From a virus (taxonomy: Duplodnaviria > Caudoviricetes): DNA of 64,000 nt. The stretch lies in the IMG/VR virus record IMGVR_UViG_3300028392_002123; one strand, 5' to 3'. Shown piece after piece: positions 5,890 to 61,289 of the stretch (positions within the stretch are counted from its first letter, which is position 1; every line of letters begins with the position of its first letter). The position numbers were made by a program, and so were the translations under genes. A model generated the notes under the pieces. The model searched no databases. It saw only the letters and a list, made by a program, of their open reading frames with translations, and was not told the DNA's origin.

Positions 5890-6397
5890 TACCTTTTGCG
5901 GCTTCGTCGTCGTTTAAGTTTTCGTCATAGGCATTGGATACATCTTCCATGTCTACTTTTCCGCTACTTGTATCTACTTTGTCGGTTTGCATTTCGTCTA
6001 CAAAGTGACGTGGCATAGTTATTTTAACAACCCATACAGGAGCTTCTAAAATCTTAGCTTTTAATCTGCCGCGGTCATCTACTTCGTAGTCGTCATCGCC
6101 TTTAATTTTACCCACGTATTTTAGAATTTCTTTGCCGTACCAAACTTTACAGCCGTGGTCAACGAGACGTTCAGCACCTGCAGGATCTGGCATCATTTTG
6201 TAGGGATACATTAGTGTAACAGTGATCCAATATCTGTCAATTTTTGGACCATCGACAATTTCGCCTTTTAGCCAATTGTCAAATACATAAAGATCTAAAT
6301 TATCTAATGTACGCTCAAATTCCATGAGAATGTCCAAGACATTATCACTGCTAAAAGCCGTGTCCAAAGTGGTATATATTGTGTCGATATCAATCAT
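5855..6397 (-). CDS. Hypothetical protein of a type recurrent in jumbo myoviruses
   Basis: 180 aa ORF (DILMEFERTLDNLDLYVF.NW..GE.VDGP..RYW); TAAATA 5 nt before the ATG. Confidence 0.65.
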   Translation of the reverse strand: MIDIDTIYTTLDTAFSSDNVLDILMEFERTLDNLDLYVFDNWLKGEIVDGPKIDRYWITVTLMYPYKMMPDPAGAERLVDHGCKVWYGKEILKYVGKIKGDDDYEVDDRGRLKAKILEAPVWVVKITMPRHFVDEMQTDKVDTSSGKVDMEDVSNAYDENLNDDEAAKGNANDENKEQQT

Positions 6398-6421
6398 GCA
6401 TATATTTAGCCGCAGATTTAA

Positions 6422-8044
6422 TTATCTTACTGTGGACTTTAATCTAGGATAAACCGCCCCAGTTGCGGGTCTAGTGCCATAGTTTTGTTTAGGAAATGTA
6501 GCACCTATACGTGTTGACGATAATAAATTGTAGATTATATCCGCTCTTGGGCTACCCAAACCTGTGGCCGCATCCCAGCCTGTTGTGGCCGCATAGCCAT
6601 TAACGCTACCTAAACCATGCCATGAATAGTTATTATAGCCCGTAGTAATATCTGTTACTGTATTGCTATTTCCATATAATAAAGTCATTAATTCACCGAA
6701 CTGTATTCTTCTTCCTAACAATTGATTTAATCTAGCAAATACTCCAGCAAGAAATGGCGCAGCCGCGCTGGTACCGCCATTTTGATTTAAACTTCCATTT
6801 ACATAAAAAGTATATCCAGTATAAGGATCTGCAGGTGCTGATATATCTGGAACACCTCTTCTGGTAACTACTGTGGGACTGCCTGTTTGTCCAGATTTAT
6901 TATATGTTGTGTAATATAAAGTAGGACTTGCTTGCCAAGTTGGCCTAGAGCTATAAGTGCTGATACCACCACCGCTGCCAGACCATACAGTTTCTGTGTT
7001 TAATGTGTTATCATTATTTAAAAAAATACTGGTCCCGCCGCTGGCAATTACATACTGACTACTAGCGGGATATTCTGCCTGCCAATTATTCCCGCCATCA
7101 TCGCCCGAGGAAAAAAATGTTAAAATACCTTTAGCAATACAAGACTGAAATGGCACGGCCAGATAGTCGCTGATATCTCCACCATATCCCCAGCTAACAG
7201 TTAACACACTGGGATTGTTTACATTGTCATTGGCAATGGCATTTACCATGTCGTAGAAACCTTGACTAGTATTCGGAGCATAATAAACTACTATTTTTGC
7301 TTTTGGCGCAACGGCGCCTGCACAATAAATATCCATCATTGTTTCAGCATCGCTGACTGTGGTAAATGTTGCACCATCTACAGAATAGTTTGTAACTGTG
7401 GGAGGTGTTAGTCCTACTTGTGTAAATGTTCTATTCACATCGGATTGATTCCATCCGCTACCTTGGAATTCTATGATTGCAATAGTTTGGCCTGCGCCGT
7501 CCCCTGCAGGAACTCGATATGCAGTGGCAACTTGAAGCGGGGTCACTGGATATTTGCTAGGATACGTGTTTGGAGCCGGACTAGGATCTGCATCACTGAC
7601 AGAAAAATTTCTAATTCTTGGTTGTACAGTAAGAGATTCATCAAATCCTAATACTAATTCTACAACAGCATCGATTTCTAAGGGAACAGTTATAGTGTCT
7701 TCATGAGTAAGATATGTTCTTGGACCATCGGTGACTGTTAATAATTGAATTTTGAAAAATGTATTGAACTGTTTAACACTACCTTCTATTTTCACCACAG
7801 CCATACCTTTATCGGATTCAACAACCAGTAATAAATTAGACCTTGCCCACTGCTCTACTAATTCAATTTCATCTTCAAGCGCACCAAATTGATAAACATA
7901 TTGATCATGATCTAATACCGGCTGTGTACCTGCAATAACACCGTCTGTATATTCTTTAAGAGTCATTCCGTTTTCATGTTTATCCCTTCGAAGATACACA
8001 CTGATAATTATTTTTTCATTTAAGTCTGCTAGAATAGATTGCAC
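6422..8044 (-). CDS. S53 family serine-carboxyl peptidase (sedolisin/kumamolisin-like) with pro-domain
   Basis: Catalytic motifs ETMMD (Glu/Asp), SSGDDG (oxyanion Asp), GGTSAAAP (Ser); RGVPDISA; GWDAATGLGSP calcium-binding region. Confidence 0.9.
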   Translation of the reverse strand: MQSILADLNEKIIISVYLRRDKHENGMTLKEYTDGVIAGTQPVLDHDQYVYQFGALEDEIELVEQWARSNLLLVVESDKGMAVVKIEGSVKQFNTFFKIQLLTVTDGPRTYLTHEDTITVPLEIDAVVELVLGFDESLTVQPRIRNFSVSDADPSPAPNTYPSKYPVTPLQVATAYRVPAGDGAGQTIAIIEFQGSGWNQSDVNRTFTQVGLTPPTVTNYSVDGATFTTVSDAETMMDIYCAGAVAPKAKIVVYYAPNTSQGFYDMVNAIANDNVNNPSVLTVSWGYGGDISDYLAVPFQSCIAKGILTFFSSGDDGGNNWQAEYPASSQYVIASGGTSIFLNNDNTLNTETVWSGSGGGISTYSSRPTWQASPTLYYTTYNKSGQTGSPTVVTRRGVPDISAPADPYTGYTFYVNGSLNQNGGTSAAAPFLAGVFARLNQLLGRRIQFGELMTLLYGNSNTVTDITTGYNNYSWHGLGSVNGYAATTGWDAATGLGSPRADIIYNLLSSTRIGATFPKQNYGTRPATGAVYPRLKSTVR

Positions 8045-8045
8045 A

Positions 8046-10049: not shown

Positions 10050-10154
10050 GATGTTATCCTTATTATCAATTAATACATTAAGTACTTTATAGAACTATTT
10101 ACCAAAATTTTAGGTATAAAACTGGTTCTTTTTGATCATCGTGTAAATATCTTT

Positions 10155-10925
10155 GTGAAGCTGGTCCATAACAAGTCTAGTACTCCTTTAAGGAGAACAG
10201 AGATGACTAAAAAGCAACGAAAGGTTCTTGCCCCGCAAGACCCTGCTACAGTTTTGCACATTGAAAAATTTAGAAAAAACAGACTACACAGAGTAGAGAT
10301 CATTCCGAAAAACCTCAGACAAGAAGACTATCTTGTAGAACTCGAGGACAATAATAAACACATAGTATTTGCAATAGGCCCAGCTGGCACGGGTAAAACC
10401 CTGCTGGCGTGTTTACTTGCGATTCGTGAGTTTAAAGCGGGTAATATAGATAAAATTGTTATCACTAGACCCGCAGTTAGTGTTGATGAACAACACGGAT
10501 TTTTACCAGGCACTTTAATAGAAAAAATGGCACCTTGGACACGCCCTATTTTTGACGTGTTCGAAGAATATTGGAATCCCAAACACATTGAAAATATGAT
10601 TGAGGAAAATGCCATCGAAGTTGCTCCACTGGCCTACATGAGAGGAAGGACTTTCAAAAATGCCATCATCATAGCAGACGAAATGCAGAATGCAACCCCA
10701 AGCCAAATGAAGATGTTGCTGACACGCATAGGAGACGGAAGTAGAATCTTCGTCACTGGCGATCTAGCACAACATGACAGAGGCTATGAAGAAAACGGAC
10801 TACGAGACTTTATACATCGATTAGCTAGTTCACGAACTAGTATGATTGGATGCGTAGAGTTTGAACAGCAGGATGTCGAACGTCATGCTGTAGTAGCCGA
10901 GGTATTGAAAATTTACGGCGAATAA
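10155..10925 (+). CDS. phoH: PhoH-family ATPase
   Basis: GPAGTGKT Walker A, IVITRPAV, GFLPG, EVAPLAYMRGRTF, IIADEMQN, LLTRIG, VTGDLAQ.D. Start may be GTG 10155 or ATG 10203 (AGGAG SD). Confidence 0.93.
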   Translation: MKLVHNKSSTPLRRTEMTKKQRKVLAPQDPATVLHIEKFRKNRLHRVEIIPKNLRQEDYLVELEDNNKHIVFAIGPAGTGKTLLACLLAIREFKAGNIDKIVITRPAVSVDEQHGFLPGTLIEKMAPWTRPIFDVFEEYWNPKHIENMIEENAIEVAPLAYMRGRTFKNAIIIADEMQNATPSQMKMLLTRIGDGSRIFVTGDLAQHDRGYEENGLRDFIHRLASSRTSMIGCVEFEQQDVERHAVVAEVLKIYGE

Positions 10926-10928
10926 GTA

Positions 10929-11522: not shown

Positions 11523-12463
11523 GTTAGTCCTCTACGTAGTCTGTCAAGTTTAACAATGGTAGCACTTAGGTTAATTTCCGGATCTGAACACATGCTGTGA
11601 TTCACCATACCTTCTTTGAGAATGATAATAGCCAAATCTTGTACATCCAAGTCGTCACTCCAGAAATTTAAATTACGGAATAAGAATTTAAAAACTTCTT
11701 CGTATTCTTCAAGGCCAATCTTTTTACAGATCATTTCTCTGGCTTGACGAATATTTCCATTTTGAAACATAGCAATAGCTTCTAGCTTCCATTCGCTGGT
11801 ATCAGTGCCAGAGCCTGCATTAGGCAATACCAGTGTGCCACCTCGACTATACTGTTGTGCTGTGTTAATTGCTTTGCGTAAATCTGGATAGGTTGCTTTA
11901 ACAAAACTGGTCAAAGTATCTACATCAAACTCACAGCCTTCGTCTGCTAAAATCTGTCCCACACGCACAGTGAATTCTGTTTCATCTAGCTGATGGAATG
12001 CAAAGCCCTGACATCTGCTGTGTAGTGCAGGCATGATTTTATGCGGCATATTACAGGTAAGAATAAAACGTGCCACCATGCTGTATTGTTCTAGCATGCC
12101 ACGCAATACTCCCTGTGCCGTTGGACTTAGATAGTCTGCTTCGTCTAGAATAATAACACGATAATCGCCAAAGGCCATGCTCTTACAAAAGTTACTGACT
12201 TTGTCACGAAGATTTTCTGCTCCTGTTTCGTGACTGGCATTAATGAACATGATGTCAGCACGTTGTACACCTAGCTCGTTGCATAGAACTTTGGCCAGTG
12301 TAGTTTTGCCTGTTCCTGGACTGCCGCTTAACAGTAAATGAGGAATATTTTTATCTTGAATCCAACCCTCAACCATGAGTTTTTGGCTGGGATCAATCCA
12401 AACGTAATCTTTAATAGTGGCGGGTCTATATTTCTCGACCCAGAGATAGTTTTGTGAAGTCAT
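11519..12463 (-). CDS. Sliding-clamp loader small subunit (RFC / T4 gp44-like)
   Basis: LWVEKYRP, GSPGTGKTT, IILDEAD, RFILTCN, ALHSRC, YPDLRKAIN. Confidence 0.92.
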   Translation of the reverse strand: MTSQNYLWVEKYRPATIKDYVWIDPSQKLMVEGWIQDKNIPHLLLSGSPGTGKTTLAKVLCNELGVQRADIMFINASHETGAENLRDKVSNFCKSMAFGDYRVIILDEADYLSPTAQGVLRGMLEQYSMVARFILTCNMPHKIMPALHSRCQGFAFHQLDETEFTVRVGQILADEGCEFDVDTLTSFVKATYPDLRKAINTAQQYSRGGTLVLPNAGSGTDTSEWKLEAIAMFQNGNIRQAREMICKKIGLEEYEEVFKFLFRNLNFWSDDLDVQDLAIIILKEGMVNHSMCSDPEINLSATIVKLDRLRRGLT

Positions 12464-12468
12464 GTTTT

Positions 12469-12497
12469 ATTATAAAGGATTTAAAGGGAAATGTCAA
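12469..12497 (-). promoter_or_regulatory. Consensus sigma70 promoter TTGACA-N17-TATAAT, 5 nt before the clamp-loader ATG
   Basis: Read directly; no SD between the -10 box and the ATG. Confidence 0.85.
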
Positions 12498-12499
12498 TT

Positions 12500-13686: not shown

Positions 13687-13687
13687 A

Positions 13688-17716: not shown

Positions 17717-19131
17717 TATCCAATACTCCCTTCCATTGTTACTGATAATAATTTATTTGCCTCGGCCGCAAACTCCAAAGGCAATGTGTTCAACACACTA
17801 CGACAAAATCCACTAACGATTGCACCTGCGGCGCTTTCTGGATCCAGTCCTCTTGACGTCAAGTAATATAACTCTTCGTCACTGACACGGCCTGTTGTGG
17901 CTTCATGTTCTACTTGAGCAGTTTCATTTCTACAATCTGTATAAGGGATTGTATTTGATCTGCTATTATTTCCAATCATCAAACTGTCGCATTGTGTAAA
18001 ATTACGAGCATTTTTAGCGCCGGGAGTCATACGAACCAGACCTCTATATGTCATCGTGCTATTACCCAAGCTGATACCTTTACTGATAATTTTACTACGA
18101 GTGTTGGCGCCAATGTGAATCATTTTTGTACCAGTGTCAGCCTGTTGTCTACCACGAGTGACAGCCACTGAGTAGAACTCACCTGTTGACCCATCACCCT
18201 GAAGGACGCAACTGGGGTACTTCCAGGTAATGGCTGATCCTGTTTCCACCTGAGTCCAACTAACTCTGCTTTTGGCTCCACGACATTGGGCACGTTTGGT
18301 GACAAAGTTGTAGACTCCGCCGATACCGTGCTCATCTCCTGGGTACCAGTTTTGTACAGTTGAATATTTAATCTCTGCCCTGTCAAGGGCAACAAGTTCG
18401 ACCACTGCGGCATGTAACTGATTCTCGTCACGTTGGGGTGCTGTACATCCTTCCAAGTAAGATACATAACTGTCCTTGTCTGCTATAATTAAGGTGCGTT
18501 CAAATTGACCGCTACCAGCACTATTAATTCTAAAGTAAGTGCTCAACTCTAATGGGCATCGTTTGCCTTCTGGAATATAAACAAAACTGCCATCACTGAA
18601 TACTGCCGAGTTAATACAGGCAAACCAGTTATCGCCCTGAGGTATAACTGAGCCTACATATTGTCGTACTAGATCAGGATGATGTTGTACTGCTTCGTTA
18701 AAACTACAAAAGATAATGCCTTCTTCTGCTAGTTTCTCTTTGTATGTTGTGCCAATACTAACGCTGTCAAAGACTGCATCAACAGCAACACCTGCTAACT
18801 TGGCACGTTCTTTTAAAGGGATACCCAACTTTTCAAAGTCATCCAGAATTTCCTGTGGTACTTCATCGAGACTTTTAAATTGTTTCTTAGGTCGACTGTG
18901 ATAGTAAATGTTGTCGTAGTCCGGGCGTGTGTACTTTAACTCGGCCCAGTCAGGCTCAGTCATTGTAGATAGTTTGGCTAGTGCATTAAGCCTGAATTCA
19001 AGTAGCCATTCGGGTTCATTGTTTTTAGCACTGATTATACGAACAGTATGCTCGTTCAAACCTTTACCGATTAATTCGGTGTCAACATTAGTAACCCACC
19101 CTGCCAAATATTCGTGTTCTAGTTCATTCAT
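17716..19131 (-). CDS. sufB: Fe-S cluster scaffold SufB
   Basis: [78 protein letters not shown]. Likely start ATG 19131. Confidence 0.96.
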
Positions 19132-19331
19132 TGTTTTATTATATCGAATATGTTGCCATATTCGTATCTTGTCCAATCATCCATATCTACATAAGTGTTA
19201 ATACACCTACGATATATTTTCTTTAACCATACTCGTTCGCCGCTGACAGTTTTAACTGGCCTCCAAGCAAACCAAATATCCCAGGGCATAACTTCTATTT
19301 TTCTAGCAACATTGCCTATAGGATCAAACAA
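19128..19331 (-). CDS. Hypothetical protein
   Basis: 67 aa Trp-rich operonic ORF. Confidence 0.55.
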
Positions 19332-28831: not shown

Positions 28832-28963
28832 TCCTTAATTATATTTACAGTCTTAGTTAGTGGTGTAATACACAAGTTTAATCATTACAACCCTTAGTAT
28901 TAAGTACTCAGTTTATTGATTTCAAAAAACATCTAAATAGCTATAGTTAACTAGGAGACAGCC

Positions 28964-29599
28964 ATGGAATTTCTTTTTGATTTCACAGATGAAAAACTTG
29001 CAAAATGTATAAGCAAGAATAAAGATCCACACAGTTGGTATGAAGCATTGGCAGAACAACTGCCTAAATTTTATATAGTTACACCTGCAAGGGTTGCAGG
29101 TTTTATCAGTCAATGCCAACACGAAAGTGCTGATTTTACTATACTAGAAGAAAATTTAAATTATGGATGGAAAGGCCTACGCGGCCTATTTGGAAAATAT
29201 TTTCCCAATGACGATCTTGCCAAGCAGTACGAGCGCAAGCCACAGTTAATTGCCAACAAAATTTACAGCGGCAGAATGGGCAATGGGCCAGAAGCTACCG
29301 GAGACGGATTTAAATTTAGAGGTCGTGGCATATTACAAATTACAGGCCGCAGTAACTATACACAATGTAGTAGAGACTTATTCGGCGACGATACTCTAGC
29401 TGACAATCCAGATTTGTTAACTGAACCAGAATACGCTATTTTAAGTGCCTGCTGGTTCTGGCACAAAAATAGATTAAACGATATCTGCGACAAAGGCGAT
29501 GTAGTGCTACTCAGCAAACGAATCAATGGTGGTACCATTGGCTTAGAAGATCGTATACATCACTGGAACCAGTGTTTACATTCTTTCGAAAGTCAATGA
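28964..29599 (+). CDS. Glycoside hydrolase family 19 endolysin
   Basis: FISQCQHES, EENLNY, GDGFKFRGRGILQITGRSNY, SACWFW, RINGG..GL.DR. Confidence 0.9.
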   Translation: MEFLFDFTDEKLAKCISKNKDPHSWYEALAEQLPKFYIVTPARVAGFISQCQHESADFTILEENLNYGWKGLRGLFGKYFPNDDLAKQYERKPQLIANKIYSGRMGNGPEATGDGFKFRGRGILQITGRSNYTQCSRDLFGDDTLADNPDLLTEPEYAILSACWFWHKNRLNDICDKGDVVLLSKRINGGTIGLEDRIHHWNQCLHSFESQ

Positions 29600-35532: not shown

Positions 35533-36034
35533 GTTTGATTACCTCTACTCCACTTTTTTTAAGGAATTTGATACCACTATCATCTCTATAGTCTTCACTA
35601 TAAAATACACGGCTAATACCTGACTGAAAAATAAGTTTACTGCATTCCATACAAGGAGCGTGAGTAACAAATAAATCAGCGCCAAGACCACTGTCATTAG
35701 ACTTCGCCAATTTTGCAATAGCATTTGATTCTGCATGTAATACTTCTGGTTTAGTTTTTAACCCGTAACGAACATTTCGCTGTGCTGTTTCATGCCAACC
35801 TTCAAAAGGATACTGTGTATCAAATTCGTCGGGATCTAACCAGCCTCCGGCACCTTTATCCCAGACTTTATCTTCACAGTTATTTTCCCAGCCTGCAGGC
35901 ATGCCATTGTAGCCCATGCTGATAACTCTGTCGTCTTTGACAATGACTGCGCCCACTTGTAGTCTACGAGCATGACTCATTTTAGCTACTTCGTGGGCAA
36001 TATTGTTATATAGTTTTTGGAATTTAGGCTTCAT
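35522..36034 (-). CDS. dCMP deaminase
   Basis: QVGAVIVKD.RVISMGYNGMP, LHAESNAI, THAPCMECSK. Confidence 0.92.
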   Translation of the reverse strand: MKPKFQKLYNNIAHEVAKMSHARRLQVGAVIVKDDRVISMGYNGMPAGWENNCEDKVWDKGAGGWLDPDEFDTQYPFEGWHETAQRNVRYGLKTKPEVLHAESNAIAKLAKSNDSGLGADLFVTHAPCMECSKLIFQSGISRVFYSEDYRDDSGIKFLKKSGVEVIKHDE

Positions 36035-36040
36035 AGCAAG

Positions 36041-36069
36041 ATTGTACTATAAAGCCTTGACGTTGTCAA
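36041..36069 (-). promoter_or_regulatory. sigma70 promoter TTGACA-N17-TACAAT, 6 nt before the dCMP deaminase ATG
   Basis: Read directly; no SD. Confidence 0.8.
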
Positions 36070-39108: not shown

Positions 39109-39268
39109 TATTAATATTACCTTCTATTTTTTCGTTATAAATTATTTGTTCTGTAATTTCAACACGGCCGCCACATCTTTGACAGATAACATCAGGTTCC
39201 ATTCGATGTTGATCAAAGGAAGAATAGCATTGTGTACAATGTAGTAGCCATTTAGAGTTTGGTTGCAT
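39089..39268 (-). CDS. Small zinc-ribbon protein
   Basis: CTQC...CQRCGG; ATG 7 nt after TAAATA. Confidence 0.55.
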
Positions 39269-39278
39269 GGTCGAATAT

Positions 39279-39671
39279 TTATCGACGCATACTTGAAATT
39301 TCCTTGGCTTCGTCGTCGGTAAAAATAGGCACAGCATTTGATTTATGCATGGTACCGATACCTTTGACCTTGGTACCTGTGTACACGGGATTGGGTTTAT
39401 AAGTTGCTACACCAACTTCGCCGGTGTTGCGCGAAGGGATATGACTGGTCGATCTTCCCGCAGGTACTTCTAATTTATAAGTCAGCGGTTCAGCCGACAT
39501 AGCACGGCGACGTTTCTTATCTTCGGCATCTACACCCCATTGCTTTTGCAGGGCCTTCCAAGACTCGTCTAATTCTCTAGCTTTGCGGGCTTCGTCGGCA
39601 TTGCGGAATTTGACCTTGCCTTTTTTCTTGCCGTTATAGCTAAGTGCAGGATGATGTAAGTGCATACTCAT
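39279..39671 (-). CDS. Hypothetical basic protein
   Basis: 130 aa; KGIGTMHKSNAVPIF segment. Confidence 0.65.
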   Translation of the reverse strand: MSMHLHHPALSYNGKKKGKVKFRNADEARKARELDESWKALQKQWGVDAEDKKRRRAMSAEPLTYKLEVPAGRSTSHIPSRNTGEVGVATYKPNPVYTGTKVKGIGTMHKSNAVPIFTDDEAKEISSMRR

Positions 39672-40847: not shown

Positions 40848-41357
40848 TTACAAATTGTTATCCATGATAAACTCTTTGACTATGTCAAAGGTATATGGAG
40901 GATTGAAACCCAGAGTAAAAACAACACGCGGTTCATTGAAGTTCAAAACTGCATGTTCAGTTTTTGTGTCAATTAGATAATAATGTCGTGGTTTATATTT
41001 TAACTCTTTGATATGATGCAGGTCTTCGCCTGTTTCATATGGTCGTCCCCAAAACGAATGACTGTCCCAGCCTGTCATTAACATATTAATAGCACAGGTT
41101 CTCACAGTATCTTTGTGAAATTTATAGTGCAGATTAGATCCCATTTTAAGAAAAACAGGCGACGTGGATTTTATATCAAATTCGTTATACAGCGCCGCCA
41201 TGACTGGATCACTGCGTATCAACATTTCTGGTAATACCAGTATGTCGAAACTGTATTGATTAAACCATTTAGCATCAGGCATGTCAATACACCCTGCAAT
41301 TTGATCATATATACTGCACGGAGTCTTAAGTTCGTAAAAGCATTCGTTTATTATCAT
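40848..41357 (-). CDS. 2OG-Fe(II) oxygenase-like protein
   Basis: FHKD..R.CAIN...EHAVLN...R. Confidence 0.6.
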   Translation of the reverse strand: MIINECFYELKTPCSIYDQIAGCIDMPDAKWFNQYSFDILVLPEMLIRSDPVMAALYNEFDIKSTSPVFLKMGSNLHYKFHKDTVRTCAINMLMTGWDSHSFWGRPYETGEDLHHIKELKYKPRHYYLIDTKTEHAVLNFNEPRVVFTLGFNPPYTFDIVKEFIMDNNL

Positions 41358-41369
41358 TATAATATTTAC

Positions 41370-42603: not shown

Positions 42604-42679
42604 TGGTTGCGGGTGAAGGATTCGAACCTCCGTCCTCCAGGTTATGAGCCTGACAGTCTGACCACTGACGTAACCCGCG
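42604..42679 (-). tRNA. tRNA-fMet (CAU), initiator type
   Basis: 76 nt cloverleaf CGCGGGU...ACCCGCAACCA; C1:A72 mismatch, G11:C24, loop CUCAUAA, encoded CCA. Confidence 0.9.
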
Positions 42680-45056: not shown

Positions 45057-45128
45057 ACTAATCTCCAGGTATATAATATATAACGCATGAACTTAGTCTG
45101 TCGTTGACAACACACTATAAATATTTTG

Positions 45129-45896
45129 ATGCAAGACTTATTTGATATACTATACACACCCCTGGACTGTCCGCCAATGCCTAAAATAGATGTGGACAAA
45201 CTGGATCTTTGGCAACAAGATCGAGTCAATAATTTTGACAAGAACAAATCAGCAAGCGCGGCCGAACTTCAGTCCAATGCTCGCACTTGGTTTATGAAAA
45301 AATCTTTTTTTCAAGGAGATCAAAATCAATATCCCTGGGATCTATCTATGTTATATTATAATAAAAATAACAGCAACGTGGGATGGTTAGGCGGATTTGA
45401 TAAAGAGTTCCCCGAACTAGTAGAGTATATTAACTCAGCTTTTGGAATACCAGTGCATGAATTTGGCACAGTATTATTACTGCCTGTTAAAAAATCACAT
45501 ACTGGAATATACTGGCATAGAGATGATGATACATCGGGTCTGCGTATGTACATTGAACACGAAGATCCAGTGAACAATACATTAATAATGCGTAGATCTG
45601 TGACCAGAGATAGATGGCCCTTGCCATGGCAGTATGATATTACTAGGCCGTTAAATGGATTTCAAGAAGAAGATTTAACCTGCAACATTGTCAGTAAAAA
45701 TCAATGTTTCTTCCTGAACAATATTAGAGCATTGCATGCCACAGTGACCAAAGCACCTGAGCGCAGAAGATTCACATTGTTGTTTGGCGACAAGTTAAAT
45801 AGAGTCATGCCAAATAGAATTAATCAACTCACCGAAGATTTAATCAAACGTAGTGCTGAAAAATACAAAGAGCAGGCCATACTATGGCCGGTTTAA
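45129..45896 (+). CDS. 2OG-Fe(II) oxygenase-like protein
   Basis: WHRDD...LHATV...RRF; ATG 5 nt after TATAAATA. Confidence 0.55.
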   Translation: MQDLFDILYTPLDCPPMPKIDVDKLDLWQQDRVNNFDKNKSASAAELQSNARTWFMKKSFFQGDQNQYPWDLSMLYYNKNNSNVGWLGGFDKEFPELVEYINSAFGIPVHEFGTVLLLPVKKSHTGIYWHRDDDTSGLRMYIEHEDPVNNTLIMRRSVTRDRWPLPWQYDITRPLNGFQEEDLTCNIVSKNQCFFLNNIRALHATVTKAPERRRFTLLFGDKLNRVMPNRINQLTEDLIKRSAEKYKEQAILWPV

Positions 45897-47740: not shown

Positions 47741-47741
47741 A

Positions 47742-49476: not shown

Positions 49477-50037
49477 TCAAATTAATCTTTGATTGACCAC
49501 ATCCCAATTGATGATGCGCCAAATATTTTCTAGATACTTTTTCTTGTCAGCTTGATAGTCTAGGGCCCAGGCGTGTTCCCACCAATCAATTAACAGTACA
49601 ATTCTATCTGTGTTGCCTGTGATGCTGTGGTTGGCAATGGTCTGTATACGACCTGCGCGATCTAAAAAGATCCAACCACTGCCCTGTATGGCCATGGCCT
49701 TGGCACTGACTTGATCTTTAAATTCATCAAAGCTTTTAAAATTACGAGTGATAAAGTCCTTGGAATTTCCAGTAGGTTGATTGCCGGACTTGGGTGCTTG
49801 TAGCTGTGGAAAGAATATATTGTGCAAGTCTGCACCATTCTTATTGAACTTGGCGTCACCTTCGCCTGAGTTATAACGATCTACATAGGCCTTGGCCAAG
49901 GTGCCGTAGTGATAGTCTAGGGTAGCTTCGCTCATCACGGGTGCCAAGTCTGTTCTTTTATAGGGCAGTTTGTTAAGGCTAAGAGTCAACTTAGTGCCTT
50001 CAACCACCATGATATATCTTCTAATATCGTATTGCAT
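49477..50037 (-). CDS. sod: Fe/Mn superoxide dismutase
   Basis: LPY...LAPVMSE.TLDYH, LHNIFF, GSGW, DWWEHA..LDY; four metal ligands retained. Confidence 0.9.
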   Translation of the reverse strand: MQYDIRRYIMVVEGTKLTLSLNKLPYKRTDLAPVMSEATLDYHYGTLAKAYVDRYNSGEGDAKFNKNGADLHNIFFPQLQAPKSGNQPTGNSKDFITRNFKSFDEFKDQVSAKAMAIQGSGWIFLDRAGRIQTIANHSITGNTDRIVLLIDWWEHAWALDYQADKKKYLENIWRIINWDVVNQRLI

Positions 50038-50040
50038 ATG

Positions 50041-50056
50041 ATTATTTATAAATAAT
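50041..50056. promoter_or_regulatory. Palindromic bidirectional T4 late-type promoter (ATTATTTATAAATAAT)
   Basis: Perfect 16 bp palindrome giving TATAAATA on both strands, each 5 nt before a divergent ATG. Confidence 0.75.
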
Positions 50057-50059
50057 TAC

Positions 50060-50494
50060 ATGAGATACTGGGCAGAATATGTCAAAGCCGGTTGGGAATT
50101 AGTAGTATTAGCACAAGGTACTAACAAAGTCTATTTGGATCAAGACTTGGAAGCATTTCTAGTTCATGTTGTTGCTAGAACATTTGAACGCACAGATCTA
50201 TGGACAGAGCCTGTGGCAATTAAACTAATGACTGCACAGCAGTTACCACAGTATCAAAGACAGATAGCACTGAGAAACATAGGTGAGGAATGTCTGTTCA
50301 TTGACGCTTGGCAGATCAAGCAACCACGTTGGCCAGCACCTAAATACTTTGAAGACATGGGCAAGATTGCCTTTGGCTATGCCAGCGTAGCCACTGACCC
50401 TGCAGATGATTTACTGGATGCTGCCGCGGAAAATTTCACCATGGTAAGTCGTGTGCTTAGATATACCAGAGACTTGTATCTACACAATGTCTAA
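50060..50494 (+). CDS. Hypothetical protein
   Basis: 144 aa ORF divergent from sod. Confidence 0.65.
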   Translation: MRYWAEYVKAGWELVVLAQGTNKVYLDQDLEAFLVHVVARTFERTDLWTEPVAIKLMTAQQLPQYQRQIALRNIGEECLFIDAWQIKQPRWPAPKYFEDMGKIAFGYASVATDPADDLLDAAAENFTMVSRVLRYTRDLYLHNV

Positions 50495-51229: not shown

Positions 51230-51230
51230 T

Positions 51231-51437: not shown

Positions 51438-51476
51438 AAGATAAGACAGCAATTTATAGTAATTGCCAACTATAAT

Positions 51477-51552
51477 TGGAGCGGGCGAAGAGGTTCGAAC
51501 TCTCGACATTTACCTTGGCAAGGTAATGCTCTACCAACTGAGCTACGCCCGC
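51477..51552 (-). tRNA. tRNA-Gly (GCC)
   Basis: Cloverleaf GCGGGCG..., loop UUGCCAA, CCA. Confidence 0.96.
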
Positions 51553-51627
51553 ATTTTCATATATGAAAAGATCTTTCGGAGATCTTTCCTGCGATTTATT
51601 TATATTCAATGTCAAATAAATAGATTT

Positions 51628-52272
51628 ATGCATAGTAATAAATTTAAAGAAACATTCTCCATGGAAAATGCAAAGTTGCCCGTGGGTTTTCAGGACTTAG
51701 ACAGTGATCTGGACCAAAAAGAAGTTCAGGAGTTAATTGACTATATCCACACATTAGACTTAGATTTTTTAACCATGGGCCAAGGTACACGTGGTAATCA
51801 TTTTTATGGCAGTACGTTTTTACGATTACCTGACAGGATTCTTTATGAAGATATAATTCCACAGCCAACTTGGGATAGTTTTTGGCGCTGGGCCCAATTA
51901 CCCAAGAATCCAGACCGAGAAAGAATATATGAAGAACTTAAATTTAAGCTAAGGCCAGCAATTACATCAATGTGCGAAAGTTTGTCTAAATTTACCGGTC
52001 GACGACATTTTCCCATGGGCATAGAAATAAACATTATGCCGCCTAATTCTAGAATTGAAACTCATATTGACAAACATCCTCGAGTTGAGGAAACACACAG
52101 AGTTCACTTAGTACTGGAAACTAACCCAGGCGCACGTATGTTCTGTGGACGTGAATCGCGCCACTGTCCGCAGGGCGCTGTGTTTATTTTCAATAATAAA
52201 ATGAGTCATGCTGTGATAAATGGTGACACTGATCGCAGTCATTTAGTTGTGGACTTTTTAACCTATCGTTAA
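51628..52272 (+). CDS. Aspartyl/asparaginyl beta-hydroxylase-like 2OG oxygenase
   Basis: MPPNSRIETHID...RVHLVL.TN...FIFNNKMSHAVING.TDRSHLVVD; ATG 5 nt after TAAATA. Confidence 0.72.
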   Translation: MHSNKFKETFSMENAKLPVGFQDLDSDLDQKEVQELIDYIHTLDLDFLTMGQGTRGNHFYGSTFLRLPDRILYEDIIPQPTWDSFWRWAQLPKNPDRERIYEELKFKLRPAITSMCESLSKFTGRRHFPMGIEINIMPPNSRIETHIDKHPRVEETHRVHLVLETNPGARMFCGRESRHCPQGAVFIFNNKMSHAVINGDTDRSHLVVDFLTYR

Positions 52273-52631: not shown

Positions 52632-52717
52632 TTTTATTCCTTTAGTTATGTATGTATATTATAGCACCTCAATTATTTATTGCCTAGGTACTAAATAATC
52701 AAAAGCAAGGAACAAGC

Positions 52718-53341: not shown

Positions 53342-53972
53342 ATCACTGAACTTGCCGGCCAACCCTATAATAGATTGGTCCGCACTAAAATCTAAATTGC
53401 CAAGAAATGTGGTCATGAGCAATAAAAACTTTGCCGGCAGTTTTTCATTGCTGGACATCAATAAACATCTAACCACAGAAGTTTTAGATACACTTGGCCA
53501 TGCAGGAATTACAGTAACACATTTAGTTGTTTTTTCCAATGGCAAATCTAGGACCAATGATGTAGAAAGAATGATACACAGCGATGTTAAATGGGATAGA
53601 GAAGATAATTCTTGGAAAAGTATACATTGCGGAATTAACTGGGAATTAGAAGGCACAAATTTATGGAAATGGTGGGACATGACTGCATACCCTGCTGTCT
53701 ACCCCACAGGCCCAATGACTCCGGAAAATCATATACTGCATGGCATACACTATGAACGTAGAGGAAGGTCCGGAGTACATCCAAATGCTAGATTAATCGA
53801 ACAGGCTTATATACCCGGTCCTAGTTTGGTACGCACAGATGTGCCGCACAGCACTATATTTGGCAAGGAAGGCTATACTCCCAGAGCAGGTATTAGTCTA
53901 CGAATAGATGAAACTAATATTTCATCCTGGGAAGATGCTGTAGAATTGTTTAAACCTTTGATCAAAGAATGA
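53328..53972 (+). CDS. 2OG-Fe(II) oxygenase-like protein, tandem paralog
   Basis: IHSD...GINW...WW...VRTDVPH...RAGISLRI. Confidence 0.6.
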   Translation: MSYHKSLNLPANPIIDWSALKSKLPRNVVMSNKNFAGSFSLLDINKHLTTEVLDTLGHAGITVTHLVVFSNGKSRTNDVERMIHSDVKWDREDNSWKSIHCGINWELEGTNLWKWWDMTAYPAVYPTGPMTPENHILHGIHYERRGRSGVHPNARLIEQAYIPGPSLVRTDVPHSTIFGKEGYTPRAGISLRIDETNISSWEDAVELFKPLIKE

Positions 53973-55453: not shown

Positions 55454-56158
55454 CAAGCCCCTGCGCTGATATAAAGTTTCTAGACTACAGTCCAGGGCCA
55501 AGGCCACAACCAGTCTAAATCCCGGGCGATCAATGTCCAAACAATGAGCACAGTCTGTGCGTAAAAATGCGGCACAGTGGTTCTTATATAAACCATGTTT
55601 TGTTGTTGTAGGTTGGCCTAGGTACTGCCATTTTTCTAGATAGTCCCTGCCCTTGATGGCCAAGTATTGATAATTCCGCACACCTAGATTTTCATGATCC
55701 TGTATGCCCACCAAGGGATGACCAGGCACAACATTTTCCCACCAATGCATGGGATCATCAGGATCATATTCAATGACCACATTAAAGCGTGTTAGCACTG
55801 GCAGTCTGCGTAAAGGGTCCACTTCATCCCATTTATATCCATCAATATGCGGATATCCTGGCTGAGCTTTATTGGCATTATTGCTGAGGAACACGTCGGG
55901 CCCACAGAGTTCACTGCCCACATAATTTCTTTCAATGCCCCAGGTCGCCAAATAGTCACGTAGTTCTTCCAGGGCCCGACTGCCCTGCCATATTATTTTC
56001 TTATTAAAGAATTTGTGTTCTGCGTCTACAGTAGCGTATTTGTCATAGGCAATATACTTGTTGACAAAAGGATAATAATAAATTTGTTTAATCCATTCCA
56101 CTGCTTCAGCACTAAATTTAAAATCGCTGTGGTGATAACAATAATTTAATTCGCTCAT
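55448..56158 (-). CDS. 2OG-Fe(II) oxygenase-like protein
   Basis: PHIDG...RFN...MHWW...LRTDCAH...R. Confidence 0.55.
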   Translation of the reverse strand: MSELNYCYHHSDFKFSAEAVEWIKQIYYYPFVNKYIAYDKYATVDAEHKFFNKKIIWQGSRALEELRDYLATWGIERNYVGSELCGPDVFLSNNANKAQPGYPHIDGYKWDEVDPLRRLPVLTRFNVVIEYDPDDPMHWWENVVPGHPLVGIQDHENLGVRNYQYLAIKGRDYLEKWQYLGQPTTTKHGLYKNHCAAFLRTDCAHCLDIDRPGFRLVVALALDCSLETLYQRRGLL

Positions 56159-56188
56159 AGTCGTATTTATTATTCATAAATATTCATT

Positions 56189-57637
56189 ATGCACGTCATA
56201 TTTTTAAACAGTATATACACACAAATTCCGCAAAGAAGTCTTGGTCCGTATTTGCTCAAACATCAATTAGCCAAGAATAATTATCAAAGTCAAGTCATTG
56301 ATTTTTGTCAAGACTGGCATGCTGATCAAATTTTACTGCTATTTAAAAAATTTGCCACAGACAAAACTCTGTGTTTGGCACTGAGCAGTACATTTTGGTT
56401 TGACGAAACACAGACTTATTATACCTATGACAACGGAATTCCGCCCAACATTTATCAAGCCGTTAAATTAATTAAACAACAGTTTCCCCAGGTTAAAATC
56501 GTTTTGGGCGGAGCGCACAGTAGTTATATGCGTTATAGAATAGAAGACGTGGACTGTGTGTTCATTGGAGAAAGCGAAGACACACTGGTAGAAGTGTTGG
56601 ACCATTGGTGCCGGGCCGGCCAAGAACCTGTCAGTGAAATTAATCCCGCCACAGGCAAATTAACATACAGAGATCCAAGGAATAAAAAATATCAAATACA
56701 GACCTGTGATTTTATGTGGCAGGAAGAAGACTGTATTATCAACAAAGAAGCTCTGCCCATGGAAACTGCTAGAGGCTGTATATTTAAATGTAGTTTTTGC
56801 GCTTATCCGCACTTGGGTAAAAAGAAATTCGATTATTTAAAACCCAATGATGCCATTAAAAATTATTTAATTAACAATTATAATCGTTGGCAGACCACTA
56901 GTTATATCATCTTAGATGACACTTTCAATGACAGCGAATATAAAATAGATGGATTTTTAGATATTACTAAAAGCCTGCCTTTTAGCATAGAATACGCGGC
57001 CTATATTAGAGCAGACTTGGTCTATAGGTTTGAAGGCATGGCAGACAAGCTGGCAGAAACAGGCCTGCGTGGAGCTTTCTTTGGCATTGAAAGCCTGCAC
57101 CCCCGGGCCAGTCAGATTGTGGGCAAAGGCTGGAGCGGTAGACATGCTCGTGAGTTTGTGCCCAGACTGGTACATGACACGTGGCAGAATAAGATCACTG
57201 CACATTGTGGATTAATTGTGGGACTGCCCGGAGAAACTCGTGAAGATTTAACTACAAGTTTAACCTGGGCCAATGACAACATGATCAATGTTATTTTCTT
57301 TGGCCTGCAGGTCACTAATAACTTACACGAGCGTAGCTATATCAGTGAATTCGAGCGTAACGCTGACAAATATGGATTTAAATTTGACGAGCATGGAAAA
57401 TGGTATAATGACACGTGGACAAGAAATTCTGTTTTAGAATTCAGCGCACAATTAAATCCTCAGCGCAGGCGCATGAATTATTCGGGATTTAATCACGTGG
57501 CCCTGCACACACTGGGCTATACCAATGAAGAAATAATGAACACACACCAGGATCTACTAGTGCGTAACAGTGAGGAATTTCGTCAGCGTAAACAACAATT
57601 CCTCAGGGCCTATTGGAATAAAATTATCAATTTATAA
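56189..57637 (+). CDS. B12-binding-domain radical SAM protein, paralog
   Basis: ETARGCIFKCSFC; same architecture as 53969-55453. Confidence 0.88.
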   Translation: MHVIFLNSIYTQIPQRSLGPYLLKHQLAKNNYQSQVIDFCQDWHADQILLLFKKFATDKTLCLALSSTFWFDETQTYYTYDNGIPPNIYQAVKLIKQQFPQVKIVLGGAHSSYMRYRIEDVDCVFIGESEDTLVEVLDHWCRAGQEPVSEINPATGKLTYRDPRNKKYQIQTCDFMWQEEDCIINKEALPMETARGCIFKCSFCAYPHLGKKKFDYLKPNDAIKNYLINNYNRWQTTSYIILDDTFNDSEYKIDGFLDITKSLPFSIEYAAYIRADLVYRFEGMADKLAETGLRGAFFGIESLHPRASQIVGKGWSGRHAREFVPRLVHDTWQNKITAHCGLIVGLPGETREDLTTSLTWANDNMINVIFFGLQVTNNLHERSYISEFERNADKYGFKFDEHGKWYNDTWTRNSVLEFSAQLNPQRRRMNYSGFNHVALHTLGYTNEEIMNTHQDLLVRNSEEFRQRKQQFLRAYWNKIINL

Positions 57638-57646
57638 ATAACAACA

Positions 57647-58207
57647 ATGATGTATAAAAAATTAATTCTGCCCCGGGATTTAATCACGGAAATTCAAATA
57701 ACTGCCATTGAGGAAATGTCTACATTTGATGTTAATTCTGGACAGCTACATTTCTTAATTAAACCACAGCATGTCATGGGCAAATATTTAAAAATGACCT
57801 ATCCCACTCTGCCCTTTTTATATAATTGTTTATTATTTCATCGTCCCCCTAATTTTCAACAGGCTCTGCACATAGACTGTAACAATGAAGATCCGCCGCA
57901 GTTGATCAACTGTGCCATTAATATACCCCTGCAAAACTGTGACGACAGCTACATGGAATGGTACTCGGGTGCGTATACCACAGAAGTCAATGCCACAGTG
58001 GGTCAGGATGGTAGAACTAGAAAATTCGTTGAACTAGCATGGCAGGGAGAACCCCAGTTAATAGAAAAAACAATAATAGATCAGCCCACGCTGGTACGTG
58101 TTAATCAGCCACATAGAATCAGTTGTATTAGTCGTGTGCGTAGTTTAATTACTTTTAGATTCAGCAAGAATCCTGATTTTGACACAGTGGAAGCTATGAT
58201 GCTTTGA
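57647..58207 (+). CDS. 2OG-Fe(II) oxygenase-like protein
   Basis: LHID...AINIP...MEWY...LVRVNQPH...R. Confidence 0.6.
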   Translation: MMYKKLILPRDLITEIQITAIEEMSTFDVNSGQLHFLIKPQHVMGKYLKMTYPTLPFLYNCLLFHRPPNFQQALHIDCNNEDPPQLINCAINIPLQNCDDSYMEWYSGAYTTEVNATVGQDGRTRKFVELAWQGEPQLIEKTIIDQPTLVRVNQPHRISCISRVRSLITFRFSKNPDFDTVEAMML

Positions 58208-58892
58208 CATCAGCAGGTATTTCTGCAATGCCTGTGATGCGTATTTTTTCCAAGTCAAAAAAGCTACGGGGAATTAAATTCATTTCCTGGGCTCCCCATA
58301 ATAAACGTAGATAAACATCATCTCCACCTAGCTCAGACTTTGAATTTTTCAACATGGGCACAATGCTGAGACAGATTCTGGGTCGGTCCGGTGTGCCATT
58401 TTTCATTTGTACGCTGTGGGGAATTCCTGCGTTTACCACGTAGAGTCCGGACATGTCTAAATGATCTATTTCCATGACGTCCTCGGGAGGAAATGCTAGA
58501 TACTTTGTGCCAGCATTGGTCACTAACTGATGTCGATCTTCAACTCGAACCCTGGGCATGTACCAGCGCATGATATTGTCCGACTCACCTATTACATAGT
58601 TAATTTTAGCAATACAGGGTACAACTCTATGCCCGTCTACGTGTATAAAAGCATCAAAGTCTTCGCCTACACCAGGACGAAAAAATACTTCACTGTGCTT
58701 GACTACCATGCCGCCACGTAGCATCATTTCTTTAAATTGCTCACTGATATATTCGGGATCATATTTGTAGTGTGCAAAAAATGTATAAGGTTGACCTTCT
58801 TTATTCTTAGGAAACGGATAAGTTTCTAATATTGTTTCCTTGCTGGCAGGAGCTATATTTAAAATATTAATGTCTCTATATGTAAATGTCAT
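58194..58892 (-). CDS. 2OG-Fe(II) oxygenase-like protein
   Basis: IHVDG...KINY...MRWY...VNAGIPHSV...RICLS. Confidence 0.6.
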   Translation of the reverse strand: MTFTYRDINILNIAPASKETILETYPFPKNKEGQPYTFFAHYKYDPEYISEQFKEMMLRGGMVVKHSEVFFRPGVGEDFDAFIHVDGHRVVPCIAKINYVIGESDNIMRWYMPRVRVEDRHQLVTNAGTKYLAFPPEDVMEIDHLDMSGLYVVNAGIPHSVQMKNGTPDRPRICLSIVPMLKNSKSELGGDDVYLRLLWGAQEMNLIPRSFFDLEKIRITGIAEIPADVKAS

Positions 58893-59437
58893 TTTAAATA
58901 TCCTTTGAACGTGTCTTCAATTTGATTAAATTTTACTTTTAGGTTGTGTTTATTTAACAGCATAAAACTATAGCAAAGTCTAGGCACGTCAACATTTTCC
59001 ACATTGTGTAACTGTCCAGCATTGACTATGGTAGGCTCTAACAGTGAGCTTTCTGCTACCATTTCCACATCTTCCCTGGCAGCCCACATATAGGGAGTGT
59101 TGATCACTGTCATTTTAAACTGTGCAGAACAGCCGGGTCGAAGCTGCCACCAACGCATAACGCTGGCACCTGGATTAACTATAAAGTTAATTTTAATATG
59201 ATTGTCAATTTGGCGGCCGTCTAAGTGCAGAGCCCAGGGATAGTCGATGTCTGTGGGTTTTTTTAAAAATACTTCGCTGAAGCCAATTTTTAATTCTAAA
59301 CTGGCCAGCCAATCAATAAAATTAACGTCAATTAATTCTCTGTCTAATTTAATTTGTCCGTGTGCAGTGGGAAATTTAACTTCGGGCAGGGACATTTTAA
59401 ATGGCAGCGTTAATTCTCTATAATATATATTTTCCAT
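58889..59437 (-). CDS. 2OG-Fe(II) oxygenase-like protein
   Basis: LHLDG...KINF...MRWW...VNAGQLHNV...RLCYS; likely start ATG 59437. Confidence 0.6.
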   Translation of the reverse strand: MENIYYRELTLPFKMSLPEVKFPTAHGQIKLDRELIDVNFIDWLASLELKIGFSEVFLKKPTDIDYPWALHLDGRQIDNHIKINFIVNPGASVMRWWQLRPGCSAQFKMTVINTPYMWAAREDVEMVAESSLLEPTIVNAGQLHNVENVDVPRLCYSFMLLNKHNLKVKFNQIEDTFKGYLK

Positions 59438-59439
59438 GA

Positions 59440-60219
59440 TTAATTCTTGGCTATCCAAAAGCTTAGATGACAGCGTGTCTGTTCTTCTCTGGGCTGATAC
59501 CAACCCACGCCCACTGACGCCACTGAGTGCATGTAGTCCTTGGTGAATATTTCATAGACCTGACCATCCGCGGGAATATAGTGTCCGACAAAGTCCATGG
59601 GCTGTTGTGCTTCTTCTTGATCAAAGCCTGCTTTCCATTTAAAATTTCTAGCACTGAATAATAGTACGTGCCCGGGGTTGGTCCACAGGGGAATATGAAA
59701 TCTATTTTCCACGGGATCGTCTTTGTGCCAGTAAAGTCCCTGACTGGTACCATTGACTGTTCTATTCTGACAGCGTATGCGTATGGGTGCTTGAAATTTA
59801 TCCTGCATGTAATTGTGCAGTTCTTCCACTATGGTGCCTTTAAATCTAGGCACCAGCTCGGCTAATTGATCATCGGTCATAGCAGGTTCTTCAACGCCCA
59901 CACCGTCAACAACACGACCCCTGCGTCCGGTGCCGCCAAACAACTGTTGATCCAATTCAGTGAATCTAGACAGGTTAGTGGTTAAATTAATATCACCATT
60001 GGTAATTCTGCTGGGATTGACAGCGTTGTAATCATGATGCAGGCTGGCATCACACCAATCCTCTGTGCCCAACTTTTTAAGTTCAACTGTTCTACGCCAG
60101 TGATCAAATCTAATGCCCGCTAGGAATACTCTGTCGCGAACAACTTCGGTTATTTTATTCACGTCCCATTGACTGAGATCTTGTCGTACTTCATAATATT
60201 TTTTAAACAGTGACGTCAT
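59440..60219 (-). CDS. 2OG-Fe(II) oxygenase-like protein
   Basis: WHKD...RFHIPL.TNP...MHSV...RCHL. Confidence 0.6.
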   Translation of the reverse strand: MTSLFKKYYEVRQDLSQWDVNKITEVVRDRVFLAGIRFDHWRRTVELKKLGTEDWCDASLHHDYNAVNPSRITNGDINLTTNLSRFTELDQQLFGGTGRRGRVVDGVGVEEPAMTDDQLAELVPRFKGTIVEELHNYMQDKFQAPIRIRCQNRTVNGTSQGLYWHKDDPVENRFHIPLWTNPGHVLLFSARNFKWKAGFDQEEAQQPMDFVGHYIPADGQVYEIFTKDYMHSVASVGVGWYQPREEQTRCHLSFWIAKN

Positions 60220-60266
60220 GAAATTATTTATAGCAAAAATCGTTTATTTTCACTATAAATATTCAC

Positions 60267-61289
60267 ATGCCCACTAGTCCTTATTTACTGCGCTATAGAG
60301 ATCCCGAGGTTAAAGAACCCGAAAATATAGAAACCAACGAATTTATTCAAAGACAGCTGGGCCGTCGCAGTCTGCGTAATTATGATCCACAGCGTAAAAT
60401 ATCCTGGGAACAGCTCAGTTATTTGATCACTGCCGCGCAATGCAGTCCCAATGGCAGTGGCGCACAAAGTTGGAGTGTGATTGCACTGATCACTGACGAA
60501 GAAAAAAGAATATTCCGGGAAGCCGCAGGCTCTGTTCTAGACGGCACAGATCCTTTGAATAGATTAAACTATGATAACTGTAGTGTATTTTTAATTTGGA
60601 TCGCAGACAACTACAAAAATGAACAGGGTATACGCATTGTAGGCAACAAAGAACTTTCTCCAGAAGAATTAAAACTCATGCCCAAGCATATATCTGCTAC
60701 TATATCTGTGCATCCTGTGCCGGGTAGAGATGACATATTATTTGATGTTGAACAGCATGTGCAAAACTTAGATCAAAGTTATTATTCTATTAGAGCCATG
60801 CAGGACTGTATTATTGCCGCACAGACCTTTGTTATGTGTGCTGAAAGTCTGGGCATGGGCACACTATACATGGGCAGTATAGCACATTGTGAACTAGCCA
60901 GTTTTAAAAATACATTAAATTTACCCAATAAAACTTATCCCCTTTTTGGCATGTGCGTGGGCTATGAACTAGCACCAGGCAGTGATCACAACGGCATACA
61001 TATTAATAATGGGCAAAGCGACTTGTACAGAAAGATCAGATATTCCGATGCAGATTATGCAGACTGGCTGATCAAACCTGTGCAACCACAGGATATTGTT
61101 CTGCATCGTGCCAAATATAATAAAGATGTCAAGGCCAGTTTATTCAAATATAATAAAATCATTTATGAATATGTCAGCAGATTAAAATCTCGCCGGGCAA
61201 ATTATTTGGTTAGTAGAGTAGCACAGCGCATTTATAAAGTAGTTGATCAATTGGGCCTAATGATGGCCATGGGTAATCGATGGCGTTGA
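60267..61289 (+). CDS. Nitroreductase family flavoprotein (NfsA/Frp-like)
   Basis: RRSLRNY, AAQCSP...AQSW, DCIIAAQT...AESLGMGTLYMGSI, LNLP...PLFGMCVGY. Confidence 0.85.
   Translation: MPTSPYLLRYRDPEVKEPENIETNEFIQRQLGRRSLRNYDPQRKISWEQLSYLITAAQCSPNGSGAQSWSVIALITDEEKRIFREAAGSVLDGTDPLNRLNYDNCSVFLIWIADNYKNEQGIRIVGNKELSPEELKLMPKHISATISVHPVPGRDDILFDVEQHVQNLDQSYYSIRAMQDCIIAAQTFVMCAESLGMGTLYMGSIAHCELASFKNTLNLPNKTYPLFGMCVGYELAPGSDHNGIHINNGQSDLYRKIRYSDADYADWLIKPVQPQDIVLHRAKYNKDVKASLFKYNKIIYEYVSRLKSRRANYLVSRVAQRIYKVVDQLGLMMAMGNRWR

Follow-up and report, generated by a model that had tools for sequence, protein, structure and literature searches.

The stretch examined here, referred to as the window, is the 64,000-nucleotide (nt) segment of the Caudoviricetes virus record IMGVR_UViG_3300028392_002123, in which the hexamer TAAATA repeatedly stands 5 nt before the start codon of a gene, on either strand. 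Genes placed in this way include a virion structural gene, whose operon also holds a phage translation initiation factor IF-1 gene, and several auxiliary enzyme genes. The window belongs to a 141,699-bp IMG/VR record (G000) that CheckV scores as about 41% complete; judged by this size and completeness, the complete genome would be that of a jumbo phage. G000 has 39.5% G+C and 29 tRNA genes. Its virion protein (5855-6397) is 27-43% identical to those of PA5oct, Atu_ph07, Phosso, and RaK2-type jumbo myoviruses, and the gene order PhoH, two virion proteins, then Clp ATPase is common to G000 and PA5oct. A DNA search against a phage collection gave no match; the sequencing runs that contain the phage are freshwater metagenomes. 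In a rough gene call, 122 of 218 genes are led by a Shine-Dalgarno (SD) sequence, mostly a strong one, AAGGAG at 6-7 nt.

The initial annotation had listed starts preceded by TAAATA and proposed that their mRNAs are leaderless; each of the listed positions carries the motif and spacing ascribed to it. The enrichment at 5 nt that this proposal implies is found against shuffled sequence: the window has 11 copies of TAAATA-N5-ATG where dinucleotide shuffles have 2.2 +/- 1.5, and none of 100 shuffles attains that count. In nine of these copies the ATG is the first of a gene. Across the whole record, when distances from TAAATA to the ATG are taken for open reading frames (ORFs) of at least 60 amino acids (aa), 18 sites fall at 5 nt and 0-4 at each other distance from 0 to 40. 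An unbiased scan of 4096 hexamers at 31 distances (0-30 nt) before the first ATGs of long ORFs ranks TAAATA at 5 nt first (17 versus 0.17 expected), above every SD hexamer. A reversed-pattern control, which compares the count of TAAATA-N5-ATG with that of the reversed pattern, yields 18 versus 1.

The pattern extends to relatives. Two were fetched whole, G001 (235 kb, 66% complete) and G002 (331 kb, 93% complete), with virion proteins about 68% and about 38% identical to that of G000. In all three genomes the spike at 5 nt is one nucleotide sharp (18 sites in G000, 20 in G001, and 20 in G002), with shoulders at 4, 6, 7, and 8 nt beside it. We surveyed 40 IMG/VR records (G001-G040) and 5 cultured phages for the pattern and for IF-1. 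Against the reversed control, the pattern is enriched in G023 (100% complete; 18 versus 4), G025 (16 versus 1), G031 (14 versus 1), G004 (15 versus 0), and G028 (9 versus 0). No enrichment appears by the same control in PA5oct (9 versus 9), RaK2 (3 versus 9), Phosso (3 versus 1), T4 (4 versus 2), or the IMG/VR records G021 (8 versus 8) and G022 (1 versus 0). An apparent mild enrichment in Atu_ph07 (10 versus 3) was rejected, as no more than 2 of these 10 lead into an ORF of at least 60 aa. In a tree of gp55-like sigma factors, the enriched genomes form one group (support 89/94) and the non-enriched genomes lie outside it.

The box has the features of a T4-type late promoter. Its consensus is A-TAAATA without a following G, the TAAATA core being fixed by the search itself; A occupies -12 in 33 of 58 sites. 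The stretch from -30 to -14 shows no conservation, and a conserved -35 element is absent; positions -5 to -2 are about 70% A+T, with G nearly absent at -5. In G000, G001, and G002 together, 71 SD-led starts have the same box 16-40 nt upstream, with leaders mostly 11-26 nt long, and G is scarce directly after the box whether or not a leader follows, which argues for a single promoter type. Gene function does not divide the two classes, since auxiliary enzymes and late genes occur in both. The box precedes the virion structural gene, an endolysin gene, and many auxiliary enzyme genes; endolysin is a late function and so fits a late promoter. Before the orthologous virion gene the box is kept in 24 of 24 IMG/VR loci and in PA5oct, Atu_ph07, and RaK2, while flanking sequence is not kept. 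A repeated mobile cassette as the source of the sites was ruled out, nothing being conserved outside the box. A gp55-like sigma is encoded in G001, G002, G021-G023, G025, G026, PA5oct, RaK2, and Atu_ph07, and its relatives occur in more than 570 IMG/VR contigs. The T4 late box spans -13 to -6 (PMC2988020, which writes "A(-13) in place of T"), and in the RaK2-like phage CBB the motif ATAAATA was predicted as a late promoter, adjoining a gp55-like gene (PMC5259590). Motif, geometry, conservation before orthologues, and the sigma gene in relatives together support the earlier assignment: TAAATA is, by prediction, the T4-type late promoter of this clade.

With the T4 box at -13 to -6, the sixth base after TAAATA is +1 and coincides with the A of the ATG. 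Bacterial RNA polymerase usually prefers to start at an A preceded by a pyrimidine. Of the 58 sites, 56 have a pyrimidine at -1, with A at +1; at the leadered promoters the equivalent base is a pyrimidine in 30 of 71, a much weaker bias, which is expected if the start needs to be precise only where the message has to begin on the A of AUG. Leaderless initiation needs AUG, and the start is ATG in 58 of 58 sites, with no genuine GTG or TTG. Among SD-led genes 16% start with GTG or TTG; at that rate the probability of finding none in 58 is about 4e-5 (0.84 to the power 58). No SD-led start lies within 40 codons downstream at any of the 18 G000 sites (0/18). Furthermore, three divergent gene pairs are only 22, 30, and 47 nt apart, and each ATG has a box of its own. 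In the closest pair, 50037/50060, two TATAAATA boxes overlap in the palindrome TATTTATAAATA, each 5 nt from its own ATG, and there is no space for a leader on either side.

Orthologous genes switch between leaderless and SD-led forms around a fixed box. Across the virion-gene orthologues in 24 loci the box is constant and only the leader length varies, the gene being either leaderless or preceded by a short SD leader. Locus L010 reads TAAATA-ctagc-ATG, and L016-L018 read TAAATA-ctagc-GGAGGCACT-ATG, so that the SD cassette starts right at the predicted +1; in L020-L022, too, the sixth base after the box is the first of a leader opening with GGAG. In ten genes that G000 and G001 share as orthologues, the box stays 4-6 nt from the ATG despite differing spacers and N-termini. 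Thus the G001 orthologues of 56158 and 56189 retain boxes at 5 nt and 4 nt, and that of 60219 retains ATAAATA-N5-ATG. Geometry and comparative signature are as expected for leaderless mRNAs and are not easily accounted for in other ways, and we consider it likely, from sequence, that the late-promoter +1 is the A of the AUG at the 5-nt sites and that the message is leaderless. The sites in the window are collected in Table 1.

Table 1. Late boxes, sigma70-type promoters, and initiation-related genes in the window; leaderless starts are predicted.
Feature	Position	Strand	Remarks
TAAATA (6403-6408) + 5 nt + ATG 6397, virion structural gene 5855-6397	6395..6408	-	PHROG virion structural protein
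phoH TAAATA promoter; predicted +1 = G of GTG 10155, 48-nt leader with AAGGAG, then ATG 10203	10144..10205	+	
TAAATA + 19-nt SD leader, endolysin gene 28964-29599	28934..28966	+	
TAAATA + 7 nt + ATG 39268, opening 59 aa only	39266..39281	-	uncertain
TAAATA + 5 nt + ATG 41357, 169-aa gene	41355..41368	-	without SD; no SD-led start within 40 codons downstream
TATAAATA + 5 nt + ATG 45129, 255-aa gene	45116..45131	+	motif and spacing verified
Divergent pair, 22 nt apart: ATG 50037(-), Fe/Mn superoxide dismutase; ATG 50060(+)	50035..50062	both	
TAAATA + 5 nt + ATG 51628, Asp/Asn hydroxylase-like gene	51617..51630	+	G001 orthologue retains TAAATA-N5-ATG
Divergent pair, 30 nt apart: ATG 56158(-), box at 5 nt; ATG 56189(+), B12-binding radical SAM gene, box at 6 nt	56156..56191		
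TATAAATA + 6 nt + ATG 57647	57633..57649	+	box of G001 orthologue also at 6 nt
Divergent pair, 47 nt apart: ATG 60219(-); ATG 60267(+), nitroreductase; each TATAAATA + 5 nt	60217..60269		
Other boxes with SD leader	1384(-), 4723(-), 24022(-), 28842(-), 31464(+), 38102(-), 52692(+), 61294(+)		
TTGACA-17-TATAAT-5 nt-ATG 12463, gp44-like clamp-loader gene	12461..12497	-	Pfam AAA/Gp44_lid aligns from N-terminus
TATAAT + 6 nt + ATG 19131, sufB	19129..19143	-	no recognisable -35; weaker case
TTGACA-17-TACAAT-6 nt-ATG 36034, dCMP deaminase gene	36032..36069	-	Pfam profile position 5 = residue 7
Phage IF-1 (infA) gene	5147..5371	-	PF01176, 78.5 bits
Initiator-type tRNA-Met	42604..42679	-	C1xA72 mismatch; A29:U41 replaces first G:C; 2/3 anticodon-stem G:C pairs

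Promoters of the sigma70 type abut start codons as well. The two that had been reported before 12463 and 36034 are borne out: TTGACA-N16-18-TAYAAT-N5-6-ATG is seen twice versus 0.01 expected, and the Pfam alignments of both products begin at their N-termini. The lone TATAAT noted before sufB also precedes a supported start, as alignments of bacterial SufB begin at residues 1-8; TATAAT at 6 nt occurs 7 times in G000 (background about 1) and 6 times in G002. The gp55-like gene itself has TTGACA-17-TAxxxT-6/7-ATG, a leaderless geometry, in the G001 subclade; in most other relatives that promoter lies before a GGAG-containing leader of about 24 nt. Since early or middle sigma70 promoters are fused to ATGs as well as the late box, predicted leaderless first genes would be a trait of the whole genome in this clade and not of one promoter class.

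Three things are inferred here: where exactly transcription starts, which sigma is used, and how the message is translated. The TAAATA box would be read by the host RNA polymerase with a gp55-like sigma supplied by the phage. At about half of the late promoters this would yield an SD-less mRNA starting with AUG, presumably translated by the 5'-terminal-AUG route (a 70S ribosome, or IF2 with fMet-tRNA). The remaining half would give messages with minimal SD leaders, mostly 11-26 nt.

Other explanations of the spacing differ in what they make of the box. The record is AT-rich and 10155 proved to be a mis-called start, as one would expect if the pattern came from chance, composition, or faulty gene calls; this was tested here and rejected, its probability being close to nil given the roughly 100-fold enrichment, the failure of any of 100 shuffles to reach the count, the 18 versus 1 of the reversed control, the absence of the spike in PA5oct and RaK2 under the same controls, and the lack of alternative SD-led starts. 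A second reading takes TAAATA at 5 nt as an SD-independent translation signal within longer transcripts, an A/U-rich enhancer bound, for example, by ribosomal protein S1. The box is indeed A/U-rich and sits where an SD would be, and 57647 follows another gene by 9 nt, so a polycistronic reading is possible there. The box before 57647 even contributes its TAA as the stop codon of the upstream radical SAM gene; termination-reinitiation through that TAA was considered and set aside, as it fits this site only. Before SD-led starts the same box stands 16-40 nt away, where it could not function as a ribosome site, and the one-nucleotide-sharp spacing with its near-universal pyrimidine at -1 is a signature of transcription starts; the divergent pairs 22-47 nt apart leave no non-coding space upstream, and orthologues insert their SD exactly after position 5. 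A translation signal is quite improbable on this evidence. Finally, transcription from the box, taken as a promoter, might begin 1-4 nt ahead of the ATG, so that the message has a very short leader and no 5'-terminal AUG. The shoulders at 4, 6, 7, and 8 nt, the drift of orthologues between 4 and 6 nt, and the wobble that start-site choice can show all favor this; the dominant spacing is exactly 5 nt, the pyrimidine at -1 disfavors a start at that base, and T4 geometry puts +1 at the sixth base, which makes such leaders improbable.

Several observations weigh against a T4-type late promoter that produces leaderless mRNAs. The first T of the T4 8-mer TATAAATA, at -13, is weakly conserved in the present clade (20 of 58 sites). 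A search of the 141.7-kb G000 record (about 41% complete) for gp55 or sigma70 region 2 found neither. No run containing the phage was found among the RNA runs searched, and four metatranscriptomes reached through a related protein hold only short contigs of relatives, which cannot reveal 5' ends. SufB, at 63-67% identity to that of many Alpha- and Gammaproteobacteria, narrows the host no further than Pseudomonadota. Lastly, the GTG at 10155, listed earlier as a leaderless start, has its box at 5 nt, but PhoH starts at ATG 10203 with AAGGAG 7 nt upstream. In G000 and G001, phoH has an SD and, 48-54 nt downstream of the predicted +1, an ATG that opens the conserved N-terminus MTK[KR]Q; in G002 it has GGAGGG and then TTG. 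The other starts of that list stand, except that 39268, with 59 aa, is uncertain. An extra TATAAATA-N5-ATG at 33481 leads into a frame of 56 aa that lies within another gene, and it is unlikely to mark the start of a gene. The boxes at 1384, 28934, 52692, and 61294, taken in the initial annotation to feed SD-led genes, do belong to the SD-led set.

The phoH leader (10155-10202, about 48 nt) is far longer than other late leaders, and its length and SD are kept in G001. This length could indicate a regulatory 5' untranslated region.

The initial annotation also linked leaderless expression to a phage IF-1 and a variant initiator tRNA, which would bias translation toward leaderless messages. Both genes are present as described (PF01176 at 78.5 bits; C1xA72), and G000 has three CAT-anticodon tRNAs, one initiator-type and two others. 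In its strong form the idea is that phage IF-1 and initiator tRNA actively reprogram initiation so that leaderless late messages outcompete host mRNAs. IF-1 occurs in G000, G001, and G002 and is absent from PA5oct, RaK2, Atu_ph07, and T4; it is the third gene in the operon headed by the leaderless virion gene at 6397, here and in L005-L010; and the initiator-type tRNA is found in G000 and G001. There is a precedent in the phiYS40 infection, which is reported to shift host IF2 and IF3 levels (PMC3594737). The distribution nevertheless supplies counterexamples in both directions. Phosso, G021, and G022 have IF-1 without the leaderless pattern; the pattern is present in G003 and G004, where a search of the 65-67% of each genome covered gave no IF-1; G002 has the spike and lacks the initiator-type tRNA. 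Moreover, the trait lies in one clade of the sigma tree, so the co-occurrence with IF-1 is confounded by descent and is not independent evidence. Active reprogramming is unlikely on this record, and a functional link of IF-1 and initiator tRNA to leaderless translation is possible but unsupported; a literature search found no paper linking phage IF-1 with leaderless mRNA. More broadly, one may speculate that this freshwater jumbo clade has made 5'-terminal-AUG initiation a main late route, aided by its own late-expressed IF-1 and, in some members, an initiator tRNA, and closed to the mRNAs of hosts otherwise reliant on SD, a picture that we regard as doubtful. The cultured Sinorhizobium phage Phosso (L226, PV764938.1, 469 kb) carries IF-1 and a peptide deformylase near virion and Clp genes (116147-116365 and 124937-125455).

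Outside Actinobacteria, Deinococcus-Thermus, and a few other groups, bacterial leaderless translation is commonly regarded as rare, and leaderless expression in phages is known for single genes and for phiYS40. Lambda cI is a single leaderless phage gene whose promoter abuts the AUG (Shean and Gottesman 1992, as cited in PMC12340547). Genes of the cI type are isolated regulators, whereas here about 20 genes per genome are involved across a clade, with promoter-AUG abutment in both. In the Thermus phage phiYS40, most middle and late transcripts are leaderless, host IF2 rises, and IF3 falls (PMC3594737). Leaderless expression is common in Deinococcus-Thermus hosts (PMC12340547), and no phiYS40 transcription factor was found (PMC4124052). 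The likeness to phiYS40 lies in phage-wide leaderless messages in later gene classes, predicted ones in the present phage, and a -10-like element directly before the ATG with no -35. On the other hand, phiYS40 is unrelated and has a Deinococcus-Thermus host; here the promoter is of T4 type, the kin infect Pseudomonadota, SD-led genes dominate (122/218), and leaderlessness is predicted from sequence. The large phages phiKZ and AR9 also have promoter classes of their own but show no leaderless transcripts: none was found in the phiKZ transcriptome (PMC8244752), and AR9 5' untranslated regions measure 26-491 nt (PMC5312081).

T4-family late promoters (TATAAATA at -13 to -6; gp55 with gp33 and the gp45 clamp) share with the present box the core, the lack of a -35 element, and an AT-rich stretch after it. 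The placement before virion and lysis genes is also the same, and a gp55-like sigma is encoded by relatives of the present phage; the RaK2-like jumbo phages CBB and GAP32 have a predicted late motif, ATAAATA, with the same core. The difference is that T4, PA5oct, RaK2, Atu_ph07, and Phosso show no excess of the box 5 nt before ATGs, whereas here about half of the boxes are fused to a start codon. T4-type late promoters, gp55, the ATAAATA prediction in RaK2-like phages, and phage-wide leaderless expression in phiYS40 are thus already known. A literature search found no paper with both TATAAATA and "leaderless" and none describing the fused-promoter pattern. In this clade a T4-type late promoter is fused to AUG about 20 times per genome, in dozens of uncultured freshwater jumbo contigs and not in cultured kin. 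If 5' ends confirm the reading, the clade would offer a natural, switchable series of leaderless and SD-led genes for studying leaderless competition in vivo, gene prediction that insists on a ribosome-binding site could be amended for such phages, and the timing and dosage of late auxiliary enzymes would be predictable from promoter geometry alone.

The window holds further genes of note. A phage-borne SUF iron-sulfur assembly set occupies 15206-19661 (-), with SufB at 17716-19131 and a class-V aminotransferase/cysteine desulfurase at 15206-16393. Also encoded are a 683-aa adenylate/guanylate cyclase with a CHASE2 sensor (20937-22988, -) and a 370-aa homologue of the CsgG-family curli secretion channel (27217-28329, -). 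The late block at 2161-10049 (-) includes a ClpB/ClpA-like double AAA+ ATPase, a kumamolisin/subtilase-type peptidase with a pro-domain (6422-8044), and a 667-aa collagen-repeat protein (8046-10049). The enzyme island at 49477-61289, with predicted leaderless TAAATA promoters, encodes the Fe/Mn superoxide dismutase, the Asp/Asn beta-hydroxylase-like protein, the nitroreductase, and two paralogous B12-binding radical SAM enzymes (53969-55453 and 56189-57637). tRNA genes lie at the 5' edge of this island and just before it. Late boxes also directly abut tRNA genes at 71694(-) and 74193(+) in extended window coordinates (G000:C1:44657-44670 + and 42167-42180 -), and one TATAAATA box starts right after a tRNA 3' end.

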